DNA of 64,000 bases from Gammaproteobacteria bacterium (lineage in GTDB: Bacteria; Pseudomonadota; Gammaproteobacteria; SKWO01): contig SKWO01000001.1 of assembly GCA_007128895.1 (NCBI GenBank), positions 4,477-68,476 on the forward strand, written 5' to 3'. Each line of letters opens with the position of its first letter. Position 1 is the first letter of the stretch. Of this stretch, positions 1 through 55,482 are shown one piece after another. The translations under genes and the position numbers were made by a program. The notes beneath the pieces were generated by a model that did no database searches, was not told the DNA's origin, and saw only the letters and a program-made list of their open reading frames with translations.

Positions 1-334
1 CCTCGAACTCACGGTTGGCCAGCACGACAGAGACCGGTCGATGGGGCACGAGTGCCTGTGCGCGCTTCAGTATGTTCGCGCCCAAGGTGGCCGGGCAATC
101 ATCGTCGGCATCCAGCAGCACCAGGATCCATCCATTTTCACCGCATTTTGCGGCCGCCAGCAGCAGGTGGCGTCGGAACTCTTCGTCACGGTTCAAGAAG
201 CGGTCCCGGTGTACGCGAATTGGCGGGGGGACGTCAGGATAGGTCTGGGACGGTCGCCATTGTGTCATTCGCCGCAGCAGAACCGGCAATGCCGCGACCT
301 CGCCATCACCTTCGACAATGCATGCGATCCTCAT
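1..334 (-). CDS. DUF4276-like small protein with Toprim-like motifs (partial; C-terminus lies outside the window)
   Basis: Minus-strand frame is open from the ATG at 334-332 to the window edge. It translates as MRIACIVEGDGEVAALPVLL...ENGWILVLLDADDDCP..., i.e. a conserved Glu in 'IVEGDGE' and a DxD in 'LLDADDD', as in Toprim/OLD-type nuclease folds. Its start overlaps the stop of the upstream ATPase gene by 4 nt (ATGA). About 63% GC. Confidence 0.5.
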   Translation of the reverse strand, partial: MRIACIVEGDGEVAALPVLLRRMTQWRPSQTYPDVPPPIRVHRDRFLNRDEEFRRHLLLAAAKCGENGWILVLLDADDDCPATLGANILKRAQALVPHRPVSVVLANREFE

Positions 335-1581
335 GCTTCGCTATCCCCGAACAAATCGGTCTGACGCCGCTCCTGCTCGGCAAGGAATTGACGATCCGGT
401 GCGAGCTGATTGAGTCGCAACAGCTCTCCAGCAGAGAATAGGTGTTGGCGGATGGCCTCGCGCGAGGCTTCATCGAGCGGCGCGATACGGGTCTCTCCTC
501 CCTCCGAAACAACGGACATGACGACATCGGTTGGTATGTCGCGATCATCAAGCAAGTCCGGGCTGTGGCTGGTCACGATGACTTGCGTATGCCCGGCGGC
601 ACGTGCGAGCGCCTCGCGCAAGGCGGCACTTGCGGCCGGATGCAGTGCGGTCTCGGGCTCCTCGATACCCACCATGGTAGGTGAATAGTCTTGGTTGCCC
701 TGGAATAGAGCGACCAGAATACCCAAGGCGCGCAGGGTGCCATCCGACATATTTTGCGCAAGAAAGCGCCATGGGTGTTTGGAGCCGGCCATGTCCTGCC
801 GAAACTCCAGACTTTCCATGGGGCCGACCTGCTTGCGTTCGACACCATGCACCATCGGTACCACGGTTTGCAGATAGTCCTGGATGAGGCTCAGCTGCTC
901 GATGCCGACCCGCTCCAGATGGCCGAGCACGCTGGCAATGTTTTCCCCAGCCGGCTTGAGTAAGCGACCCTCCTGCGGTTTTTGCAGCTCACGCATCAGC
1001 TTCGGATTGAGGTTGTAGAAGCTCATCGATGACAATGCATCGAATACGGGCCGAAAGGCGGTGAGGCCCGAGGCGGCCACCAGTGCCAAGCGGTCAGATG
1101 TGACAGATGGAAACGTGGCTTCACTGGTGTCCCGCACTTTGCCACGATCAATCCGAAAAAAAGGGCCTTTTCCAATACCTGCAATGACGCACTCTTCTGT
1201 CTGGACCTCGTACCCTCCCCCTTTGAGGGCACCCACGTTGAAAGCAAAATGCCCTTGCCGACCATCCGGCAAGGTAAATTCAAGGCGTATGCCGAAGTGC
1301 GTGGGATGGCCACTGGAGCGTCGGCGCACCTCGTTCAACCCCCCACGTTCGTTCAGCGCGTTATCCAGGGAGCCATTGAGTGCATCGCGCACTAAGTGCA
1401 GCGCATCGATAAAGTTGCTCTTGCCTGCGCCGTTTGGCCCCACCAAATAGGTCAACGCGCCGAGGCGCACATCGCAAAAGCCAATGCTCTTGTAATTTCG
1501 GAGAATAACGCGGTGAACGAAAAGTGGATGACTCACAAGACCTCCCCTGTGGGTGTGTACTTGAGGATAGCGTACCGCCAC
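331..1581 (-). CDS. AAA15/ABC-type (SMC-like) ATPase, OLD/PARIS-AriA-like
   Basis: 416-aa ORF with a Walker A (LVGPNGAGKSNFIDAL) near the N-terminus and a long insert. Near the C-terminus there is an ABC-signature/Walker B-like region (MVGIEEPETALHP) and a D-loop/H-motif (VIVTSHSPDLL). GC is about 52-55%, against about 72% in the neighbouring ubi genes. Confidence 0.75.
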   Translation of the reverse strand: MAVRYPQVHTHRGGLVSHPLFVHRVILRNYKSIGFCDVRLGALTYLVGPNGAGKSNFIDALHLVRDALNGSLDNALNERGGLNEVRRRSSGHPTHFGIRLEFTLPDGRQGHFAFNVGALKGGGYEVQTEECVIAGIGKGPFFRIDRGKVRDTSEATFPSVTSDRLALVAASGLTAFRPVFDALSSMSFYNLNPKLMRELQKPQEGRLLKPAGENIASVLGHLERVGIEQLSLIQDYLQTVVPMVHGVERKQVGPMESLEFRQDMAGSKHPWRFLAQNMSDGTLRALGILVALFQGNQDYSPTMVGIEEPETALHPAASAALREALARAAGHTQVIVTSHSPDLLDDRDIPTDVVMSVVSEGGETRIAPLDEASREAIRQHLFSAGELLRLNQLAPDRQFLAEQERRQTDLFGDSEA

Positions 1582-1661
1582 AGCGCCGAACCATTGCGTT
1601 CACTGTTCATGTGTTACTTCCAGTAATAGCATCGATTAGCTTGGCTGGTTCCACATCAACT

Positions 1662-2891
1662 CTACCCGCCGGATGACTTGACCACCCTCGGCAGGTCGCC
1701 GCTCAGCCCCATGGCGCGGCGGATCATCGGCTTCTTGATCGGTTCGGCGCGGTCGAGCAGGCGCAGGCCGGTGCCGCGCAGGGCGGTGAAGGGGGTGGCG
1801 TCGACGGCGAAGAGGCGCTTGATCGCCTCCATGGCGAGCTGCACGGTGAGGTTGTCGCCCTTGCGCCAGCGTTCGTAGCGGCGCAGGACGGCGTGGTCGC
1901 CGATCTCGCGGCCGCTGCGGTGGGCCTCGCCGATCACCTCGGCCAGTGCGGCGGCGTCGAGCAGGCCGATGTTGACGCCCTGCCCGGCGAGCGGATGGAT
2001 GCGGTGGGCGGCGTCGCCGACCAGGGCGAGGCGGGGCCGGGTGTAGTGGTGCGCGTGGTGCGGCACAAGCGGCCAGACGGCGCGTTCGCCGCACGCCTCG
2101 ACGGCGCCGAAGCGGTGCTCCAGTGCGGCGCCCAGTTCGGCGCAGAAGACGGCCTCGTCCATCGCGGCGAGCGCTTCGGCGCGCTCGGGGGTGGTCGACC
2201 AGACGATCGAGGCGTGGTGCGGGTCGAAACCGAGAAAGCCGACCGGCCCGTCGGGGAGGAAGCGCTGGTAGCAGCTGTTCTGGTGCGACTCGGCGCAGCG
2301 TACCCAGGTGACCACGGCGTGGTGGTCGCCGTGCCAGCCCCAGGTGGTCAGGCCGGCCAGCTCGCGGATGCGTGAGCGGCCGCCGTCGGCAGCGACCAGC
2401 AGCGGCGCGGCGAGGTGGCGGCCGTCGTCCAGGCGCAGCCGCGCGGCGTCGCTGTCGAGGTGGAGGGCGGCCGGCTCGGCCGGGGCGATCAGGTGGATGT
2501 TGCGGTGTTCGGCCAGCCGTTCGCGCAGGGCGGCGAGGATCACGCGGTTTTCGACGATGTGGCCGAGGTCGGGGGTACCGGCGTCGGCGCTGTCGAAGTG
2601 GAGCCGCGCGCCGCTGCCGGCATCGCGCACCTCCATGGTGCGGTAGGGGAAGACGCGCCGTGCCTGCATGCCGCGCCAGGCGCCGATGGCGACAAAGAGG
2701 CGTCGCGTCGCCTCGGTAATCGCGCTGGTGCGGGTCGCGTAGGTCGCCGGGAAGGGCTCGAGGGGTGCGCCGTCGCGGTCGATCACGGCGACCTCGAGGC
2801 CGTGGCCGGAGAGCAGGCAGGCGAGCGCACTGCCGACCATGCCGCCACCGGCAATGATGACGTCGTAACGCTGCTCGTGCAGCGGGCTCAC
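1662..2891 (-). CDS. ubiI: FAD-dependent ubiquinone-biosynthesis hydroxylase, UbiH/UbiF/VisC(UbiI) family
   Basis: 409 aa with the N-terminal Rossmann motif DVIIAGGGMVGSALA. It is the second of two tandem paralogs downstream of pepP-ubiH, matching the E. coli pepP-ubiH-visC order. Confidence 0.75.
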   Translation of the reverse strand: MSPLHEQRYDVIIAGGGMVGSALACLLSGHGLEVAVIDRDGAPLEPFPATYATRTSAITEATRRLFVAIGAWRGMQARRVFPYRTMEVRDAGSGARLHFDSADAGTPDLGHIVENRVILAALRERLAEHRNIHLIAPAEPAALHLDSDAARLRLDDGRHLAAPLLVAADGGRSRIRELAGLTTWGWHGDHHAVVTWVRCAESHQNSCYQRFLPDGPVGFLGFDPHHASIVWSTTPERAEALAAMDEAVFCAELGAALEHRFGAVEACGERAVWPLVPHHAHHYTRPRLALVGDAAHRIHPLAGQGVNIGLLDAAALAEVIGEAHRSGREIGDHAVLRRYERWRKGDNLTVQLAMEAIKRLFAVDATPFTALRGTGLRLLDRAEPIKKPMIRRAMGLSGDLPRVVKSSGG

Positions 2892-6687: not shown

Positions 6688-6888
6688 TCAAGGGGCGCCC
6701 TCTGCGGTGTTCGTGAGCTGACCGGGTATTTTCTTGAGCCTAATTCCATACCCCGGGGTGGCGTGTTCGACTGCTGTGTGCATGTCCGCCGCGTTGCGGA
6801 AAGCCTGACGCAACGACAACCACCCCACTTGAACCCCTGGTTCAAGGACGATGGTCACCACGGCACAGGCGGTCGGCGCCCTCTACCC
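6688..6888 (+). ncRNA. ssrS: 6S RNA (SsrS)
   Basis: Clear primary-sequence similarity to E. coli 6S RNA. Matches include GAGCCUAAUUCCAUACC against GAGCCGAUAUUUCAUACC, GCGGAAAGCCUGACGCAACGACAACCACCCCACUUGAACCCCUGGUUCAAGG against GAGAAGCCUUAAAACUGCGACGACACAUUCACCUUGAACCAAGGGUUCAAGG, and a GGCGGUCGGCGCC 3' tail. It sits between zapA and the 5-formyl-THF cyclo-ligase gene. Ends are approximate. Confidence 0.75.
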
Positions 6889-9022: not shown

Positions 9023-9039
9023 GAAAAAAGTTTGGCAAC

Positions 9040-9245
9040 AGGTGTCCCGACGGCGTTCTGCCCGGAGGGATGAAACGGGAAGCCGGTGCGTTCCACGCGA
9101 ACAAGCCCGGCACTGCCCCCGCAACGGTAAATGAGTCAAGGCTGTGCCGCATGCCACTGTGTTTCAGCAACACGGGAAGGCGCACAGCCGGGAGAGCCCC
9201 TCCCGCTCATGAGTCCGGAGACCGGCCTGTCGCCACTGAGCCGAC
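9040..9245 (+). promoter_or_regulatory. Adenosylcobalamin (B12) riboswitch
   Basis: Conserved core GGGAAGCCGGUGCG...AAGCCCGGCACUGCCCCCGCAACGGUAAA plus a B12 box GAGUCCGGAGACCGGCCUG at about 9210-9228. It sits in the 5' leader of a TonB-dependent BtuB gene. Confidence 0.85.
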
Positions 9246-55389: not shown

Positions 55390-55465
55390 CCCACCGAGGA
55401 GCGTTGCAACAGGCATGGCCTGCCAGGCTCGGTGAGGAGGCCCTTGATCAACGGCGCTCCCAACG
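55390..55465 (+). promoter_or_regulatory. SAH (S-adenosylhomocysteine) riboswitch
   Basis: CCGAGGAGCGUUGCAAC...CAGGCUCGG...AACGGCGCUCC matches the SAH-riboswitch consensus blocks (GAGGAGCGCUGCRAC / GGCUCGG / AACGGCGCUC). It sits immediately 5' of ahcY. Confidence 0.8.
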
Positions 55466-55482
55466 ACACTCAGGAGAGAACC

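Follow-up and report, generated by a model that had tools for sequence, protein, structure and literature searches.

We analysed a 64,000-nucleotide (nt) stretch of a Gammaproteobacteria bacterium genome (GenBank assembly GCA_007128895.1, contig SKWO01000001.1), referred to below as the window. At its low-coordinate end lie two minus-strand genes, which encode an ABC-type ATPase and a small partner protein of the DUF4276 family and together form a copy of the candidate defence system HEC-01. The pair follows, on the same strand, the genes UPF0149 (ygfB)–pepP–ubiH–ubiI, with ubiI at window positions 1662–2891, and thus sits at the 3′ end of this operon, where a first-pass annotation of the sequence had placed it. 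The ATGA overlap which that annotation reported between the ATPase gene and the small downstream open reading frame (ORF) is seen at 334–331. GC content is 0.53–0.63 over positions 1–1650 but 0.71–0.76 in the upstream ubiI, ubiH, pepP and ygfB genes, in line with the low GC first ascribed to the pair.

Identity of the gene pair

The window holds only part of the partner gene. An exact-protein look-up of the ATPase, however, returned four contigs with 99.6–99.8% identity to the window across stretches of up to 11.5 kb, one of which (L001/L097) reaches about 10 kb past the window edge. On a contig 99.7% identical to the window the full-length partner (P0126) has 197 amino acids (aa) and matches all 111 visible residues; it is also present on a 71-kb NCBI contig. 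The partner gene thus ends at 197 aa and is followed by a separate convergent type I restriction–modification (RM) operon, so the system has no further subunits beyond the edge, where its extent had not been visible to the first-pass annotation.

Because both proteins match the PADLOC profiles of HEC-01 over their full length, the pair is a new, ordinary copy of this catalogued system rather than a new system type. The ATPase matches HEC-01A (PDLC04178) with an E-value of 8.3e-185 and 612.5 bits over profile positions 6–396 of 399, and the full-length partner matches HEC-01B (PDLC04196) with 4.8e-92 and 305.4 bits over profile 1–192/197 (1.4e-50 for the 111-aa fragment). The genes are adjacent and on the same strand, with the ATPase first, as in the HEC-01 definition. 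HEC-01 was defined as an ABC ATPase plus a TOPRIM protein with a conserved metal site, was found embedded in Hma systems and was added to PADLOC (Payne et al., 2024, bioRxiv 10.1101/2024.01.29.577857). With end-to-end profile matches and the same gene order, strand and adjacency, we find no structural difference between that system and the copy described here. Only the context differs: the original candidates were embedded in Hma, this copy stands beside a type I RM system, and most of its relatives stand alone. The first-pass annotation was therefore right to see a defence-type ATPase–Toprim pair, as the PADLOC models agree, but not to see a novelty, the pair having been catalogued and published in 2024. 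The literature searched contained no study of the mechanism of HEC-01.

The open frame of the ATPase extends to a first GTG at 1581 (331–1581, minus strand), giving the maximum of 416 aa that was originally assigned. The ORF is present as described, but the supported start shortens the product: translation almost certainly begins at the GTG at 1536, which would give 401 aa, because a Shine–Dalgarno-like GGGGAGG lies upstream of it, gene callers chose it on the four independent contigs, and homologues are 400–401 aa long in nearly all listed ATPase relatives. In addition, the HEC-01A profile alignment starts only at residue 19 of the 416-aa ORF.

The sequence carries Walker A, signature, Walker B and H-loop motifs in ABC order (Table 1), with the Walker A motif N-terminal and the others C-terminal as first proposed, and the key residues are invariant in 42 homologues. 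Both AAA_21 (1.1e-28, 101.7 bits) and AAA_15 (4.3e-16, 60 bits) match above the Pfam thresholds, in keeping with the AAA15/ABC-type assignment of the first-pass annotation.

The partner is a DUF4276 protein with a predicted Toprim fold and a predicted metal site of the E/DxD type. The part visible in the window (334–2) already holds the IVEGDGE (E8, E12) and LLDADDD (D75, D77–D79) motifs in which a Toprim signature had been recognized, and E8, D75 and D77 are invariant among 48 homologues that are 67–85% identical. The full-length protein matches Pfam DUF4276 (PF14103) with 49.9 bits and 5.9e-13 over profile 1–189/192, above the gathering threshold of 30.2, whereas the 111-aa fragment alone falls below it (15.5 bits); the proposed DUF4276-like nature of the partner thus becomes an assignment to that family. 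An AlphaFold model is confident (pLDDT, predicted local distance difference test, 95.2; predicted template modelling score, pTM, 0.90), has the three-layer alpha/beta fold of Toprim domains, and places E8 after strand 1 and the DxD motif at the end of strand 69–76. A Foldseek search of the PDB with this model gave one clear best match, the C-terminal Toprim region of the class 2 OLD protein of Burkholderia pseudomallei (6nk8; E 8e-3, probability 0.96, TM-score 0.45). DUF4276 is termed Toprim in two papers besides the one on HEC-01; the Menshen paper calls DUF4276 (Mad4) a Toprim domain, and the PARIS paper places DUF4276-associated ATPases in a tree of AAA15/21 defence proteins. We found no biochemical work on any DUF4276 protein in the literature searched. 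NCBIfam has no model for the partner, nor for three proteins encoded in the neighbouring operon described below (a zeta-like kinase, a 60-aa protein and RhuM).

Table 1. Features of the HEC-01 locus. Positions are those of the window unless a contig is named; invariance refers to 42 ATPase or 48 partner homologues.
Feature	Position	Strand	Basis and remarks
HEC-01A, ABC-type (AAA_21/AAA_15) ATPase, 401 aa	331..1536	-	Pfam, PADLOC, gene calls, homologue lengths
Shine–Dalgarno-like GGGGAGG, 4 nt upstream of GTG 1536	1541..1547	-	Read from sequence
Walker A/P-loop GPNGAGKS, residues 33–40 of the 401-aa protein	1417..1440	-	G33, N35, G36, G38, K39, S40 invariant
ABC signature-like MSDGT, residues 263–267	736..750	-	M263, S264, D265, G266, T267 invariant
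Walker B/D-loop MVGIEEPE, residues 288–295	652..675	-	V289, E292, E293, P294, E295 invariant
H-loop TSHSP, residues 322–326	559..573	-	T322, S323, H324, S325, P326 invariant
ATGA overlap, ATPase stop TGA/partner start ATG	331..334	-	Sequence; translational coupling
HEC-01B, first 111 codons of the 197-aa DUF4276/Toprim-like protein, cut by window edge	1..334	-	Translation, PADLOC, Pfam
Toprim glutamate motif EGDGE, E8...E12, just after strand 1	299..313	-	E8, G9, G11, E12 invariant; model, strand 2–7, helix 10–27
Toprim DxD motif DADDD, D75–D79, end of strand 69–76	98..112	-	D75, A76, D77, D78 invariant; model
Second acidic cluster ExE, E109 and E111, after strand 101–107	2..10	-	Both invariant; model
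Low-GC spacer, 125 bp, ubiI stop to ATPase start, left boundary of island	1537..1661	-	GC 0.527 in 1351–1650; no promoter-like or terminator-like site found
Type I RM operon with embedded genes, then HigB/HTH_3 pair	L097:10802–19006		Beyond window position 1, on contig 99.7% identical to the window

Several known systems combine an ABC ATPase with a Toprim nuclease, and HEC-01 differs from each of them. In PARIS, the separate Toprim protein AriB belongs to DUF4435 and has a mass of about 35 kDa, whereas the 197-aa partner here belongs to DUF4276. As the first-pass annotation had foreseen, no DUF4435 match was found for the fragment (E ≤ 1) or for the full-length partner (E ≤ 0.01), and no AriB model was among the PADLOC matches. 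The ATPase reaches 95.6 and 64.7 bits with the AriA models, against 612.5 with HEC-01A, which points to a related ATPase clade but not the same family. Its scores with the models of other PADLOC families are 89 bits for mad3, 79 for Old, 77 for NsnB, 68.8 for AbiLi and 50 for GajA. OLD-family proteins (P2 Old, the class 2 OLD of Burkholderia pseudomallei and the Gabija protein GajA) likewise join an ABC ATPase to a Toprim nuclease with E and DxD metal ligands; the ATPase head weakly matches Thermus scotoductus OLD and GajA by sequence, and the C-terminal region of the B. pseudomallei protein is the closest Toprim-bearing solved structure to the partner. In OLD and GajA, however, the domains are fused in one chain of 500–600 aa, whereas here a stop codon and a 4-nt overlap separate two genes, so the split, translationally coupled arrangement that had been contrasted with fused OLD proteins is indeed present. 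Gabija also has a UvrD-like partner, GajB, and this locus has none.

In MADS and Menshen, DUF4276 Toprim domains likewise act with an ABC ATPase, namely Mad4 and the C-terminal domains of some NsnC proteins, but the ATPase here matches mad3 and NsnB only weakly, and NsnA is not present. Its NCBIfam MAD3 score, 98.6 bits, falls short of the cut-off of 420, the partner has no mad4 match at E ≤ 1e-5, and the scores of the methylase, specificity and restriction genes next to the pair are those of a canonical type I RM system, not of MADS. AbiL and RloA–RloB are also two-gene systems of an ATPase and a small Toprim-like partner that recur in or beside type I RM loci, and the Menshen paper describes RloB as a Toprim protein linked to RM. 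Yet the AbiLi score of the ATPase is low, and neither the fragment nor the full-length partner matches RloB (PF13707) in Pfam.

Acquisition of the cassette and its surroundings

The evidence supports horizontal acquisition of the cassette, as the first-pass annotation had proposed, within a genomic island, because GC content is low, the site is empty in Thiohalomonas, and close homologues occur in unrelated taxa although the host itself, judged by its UbiI protein, is isolated. The empty-site comparison was drawn from the nearest UbiI homologues, which are 53–55% identical. In Thiohalomonas denitrificans, ygfB–pepP–ubiH–ubiI is followed by one small ORF and then directly by the orthologous substrate-binding protein (SBP)/permease operon, with an SBP 61% identical and no island between them; a second relative likewise lacks the pair after ubiI. 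The pair is therefore missing from this position in both of the relatives examined. By contrast, ATPase homologues 90–95% identical and partner homologues 82–86% identical are found in unrelated taxa, whereas no host UbiI homologue exceeds 55%. The host is phylogenetically isolated: outside the species-level cluster of its UbiI, none of 5.8 billion proteins matches that UbiI at more than 55% identity, T. denitrificans is the nearest named relative, and scans with exact UbiI peptides of GTDB species genomes and JGI metagenomes revealed no close relative. Every contig with an identical UbiI also carries the pair.

Neither plasmids nor phages could be identified as the vehicle of transfer, and we rejected both. 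In a plasmid collection, the only matches were 33–35% identical and lay on three Streptomyces plasmids. The sole phage match is a HEC-01A homologue, 46% identical, on an unannotated human-gut phage contig (MT835995.1:21141–22271).

Past the end of the partner gene, a gap of roughly 200 bp leads to a convergent operon of hsdM, RhuM, hsdS, a 189-aa zeta-toxin/AAA_33-like kinase, a 60-aa protein and hsdR, then to a HigB/HTH_3 (HigBA) toxin–antitoxin pair and finally to the SBP/permease transporter operon. The RhuM gene matches PADLOC PDC-S05, which has been reported to protect about 1000-fold against T7 and T5. The island, which extends from the stop codon of ubiI as far as the SBP gene, measures about 10.5 kb and has a GC content of 0.53–0.64 compared with 0.73 in the ubi genes. 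This low-GC block is a defence island, comprising HEC-01, a type I RM system and HigBA, between ubiI and the transporter operon. We found no tRNA, integrase or direct repeat marking its boundaries.

The zeta-like kinase and the 60-aa protein (L097:13836–14587) are also encoded in Allochromatium humboldtianum (L005:10749–11536), where, with 74% and 63% identity, they directly follow the HEC-01 pair. They probably constitute an independent mobile two-gene module, possibly a toxin–antitoxin system, which has no PADLOC or NCBIfam model and is not part of HEC-01. The kinase was considered as a third HEC-01 component and rejected, because in our survey of HEC-01 loci, described below, it accompanies the pair in only 1 of 80.

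Elsewhere in the window we observed three structured RNAs. A 6S RNA (ssrS; Rfam RF00013, 85 bits) at 6696–6879 (plus strand) occupies its canonical place between zapA and the gene for 5-formyltetrahydrofolate cyclo-ligase and accounts for a local GC dip there. A cobalamin riboswitch (107.6 bits) at 9023–9244 (plus strand) precedes genes for a TonB-dependent receptor and a cob(I)alamin adenosyltransferase, and an S-adenosylhomocysteine riboswitch (65 bits) lies at 55390–55466 (plus strand).

Distribution of the cassette across species

A survey with one genome per species yielded 80 partner-encoding loci, from Gammaproteobacteria and Betaproteobacteria, including Neisseria, plus one metagenome-assembled genome (MAG) of the Verrucomicrobiaceae. 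The ATPase gene is directly upstream of the partner gene in all 80; the two overlap by 1–5 nt in 71 of them and lie within 5 nt of each other in 78. The identities of the two proteins to our query co-vary across these loci (r = 0.65). The loci occupy unrelated chromosomal sites, with neighbours that differ between taxa and are mostly housekeeping genes. Nearest neighbours of defence type are a minority: upstream N6_Mtase genes (4/69), other AAA_21 ATPases (5/69 and 2/65), UvrD-like helicases (3/65) and DUF3375 (2/65). The pair is thus a strict, self-contained, translationally coupled two-gene cassette that is only occasionally tied to type I RM. It is also widespread: at 90% identity, the partner forms at least 3,500 clusters and the ATPase more than 7,600.

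This distribution bears on the idea that the pair has a housekeeping role in DNA repair, analogous to that of RecF, an SMC-like ABC ATPase, and RecR, a Toprim protein, and is co-expressed with the ubi operon. The pair begins, on the same strand, only 125 bp downstream of ubiI; no terminator-like site was found in the spacer (1537–1661), and the N-terminus of the ATPase is weakly like RecF and SMC heads. These matches, however, are confined to the P-loop region and lie far below the family cut-offs, and the pair has a foreign composition, does not occur at this site in the closest relatives that were compared, and is scattered patchily across Gammaproteobacteria and Betaproteobacteria at 62–95% identity with no conserved neighbourhood. 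We consider a repair function very improbable.

The association with type I RM raises another idea, namely that the pair guards the adjacent RM system as PARIS does, sensing anti-restriction proteins such as DNA mimics of the Ocr or ArdA type and triggering tRNA cleavage by the Toprim protein. Here, hsdR of a complete type I RM operon is about 200 bp away from the pair, and two other loci, that of Rehaibacterium (L009) and the closest species locus (L017), have the pair embedded between hsdM and hsdS; PARIS, moreover, shares the layout of an ATPase and a separate Toprim protein and is triggered by an anti-restriction protein. Set against this, a tblastn search located type I RM genes within 10 kb in only about 4 of the 80 species loci, N6_Mtase is as rare among the nearest upstream neighbours as given above, the pair mostly stands alone amid housekeeping genes (as in Pandoraea, Stutzerimonas and Thiohalocapsa), and the partner belongs to DUF4276, not DUF4435. 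From the tblastn and N6_Mtase counts we rejected an obligate linkage to type I RM, keeping an occasional association, and we regard a guard function as unlikely. A related evolutionary proposal, in which HEC-01 would be an independently evolved, split OLD-like sentinel whose DUF4276 effector is released when anti-restriction proteins disable an adjacent or embedding RM system and then cleaves tRNA, is to our minds equally doubtful.

The Rehaibacterium locus is a case of defence genes densely packed into an RM system. In this Rehaibacterium terrae MAG (L009:5970–17741), a type I RM operon interrupts the gsp cluster for type II secretion and holds, besides HEC-01, genes for SLFN/AlbA_2, Peptidase_M78, DUF4411 and a DDE transposase.

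Possible modes of action

The HEC-01 cassette arrived here by horizontal transfer within its defence island, and we think it probable, by analogy with characterized relatives, that its ATPase acts as a sensor gating a Toprim nuclease in an abortive-infection response. In this model, the ATPase would serve as sensor and regulator and would hold its Toprim partner inactive in a complex. A cue from the infection, such as a protein of the phage or nucleic acid of aberrant structure, would combine with the binding or hydrolysis of ATP to free or activate the partner, whose two-metal E/DxD site could then cut nucleic acid, so that the infected cell stops growing. There are precedents for such gating. 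In PARIS, AriA keeps hold of AriB, which cleaves tRNA once released; in P2 OLD, destabilization of the tetramer opens the Toprim site, and tRNA is again the target. The separate small effector and the tight coupling of the two genes would fit a PARIS-like hold-and-release mechanism. The substrate could also be DNA, since the nearest Toprim-bearing structures are those of class 2 OLD and GajA.

Direct tests of defence by HEC-01 have given divergent results. In a cold-seep study, E. coli B with one representative was protected against one or more of the phages T4, T5 and T7. Several points weigh against the model nevertheless. The HEC-01 example assayed in E. coli MG1655 gave no protection against any phage tried (bioRxiv 10.1101/2024.01.29.577857); the cold-seep study states no fold-change for HEC-01, and the AAA_21 domain is the only one that it mentions; and the published defence tests all concern representatives outside the clade of our pair. 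Most of the 80 surveyed loci lie among housekeeping genes, not in defence islands. On the structural side, a search of the partner profile against solved structures in the PDB by sequence returned nothing at E ≤ 10, and the AlphaFold model of the ATPase, built from a 42-sequence alignment of 78–94% identity, is poor (pLDDT 45, pTM 0.26) and gives no oligomer or partner interface.

The negative test would also fit a reading of the pair as a selfish addiction module, in which a Toprim toxin is restrained by the ATPase, the cassette is maintained and spreads through the harm that its loss would do, and the benefit is stabilization of the island rather than defence against phage. A compact, coupled two-gene cassette inserted alone at many unrelated chromosomal sites would suit such a role, Pfam describes AAA_21 itself as a 'putative AbiEii toxin, Type IV TA system', and toxin–antitoxin-like pairs (HigBA, and the zeta-like kinase with its small protein) are close at hand. 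The phage protection reported for one HEC-01 representative argues otherwise, however, as does the fact that the characterized ATPase–Toprim relatives are all phage-triggered; addiction modules, moreover, are usually plasmid-enriched, whereas close homologues of our pair are essentially missing from the plasmid collection. We judge addiction to be slightly less plausible still than a guard function, and continue to favour a sensor ATPase that gates a Toprim nuclease during infection.

Although the system itself is not new, HEC-01 retains interest, being widespread, with contradictory functional tests and a mechanism unpublished in the literature searched. The locus described here offers an insertion site that is clean and can be compared with an empty one, as well as evidence that the cassette entered a deep-branching lineage of Gammaproteobacteria very recently, and culturable carriers of the cassette exist in Stutzerimonas azotifigens, Pandoraea pulmonicola, Neisseria lactamica, Variovorax and Achromobacter. 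More broadly, should HEC-01 prove to be a sentinel for the loss of restriction, it would be a functional analogue of PARIS drawn from a different Toprim family, which would explain the recurrence of RloAB, AbiL, PARIS and HEC-01 in or beside restriction loci.

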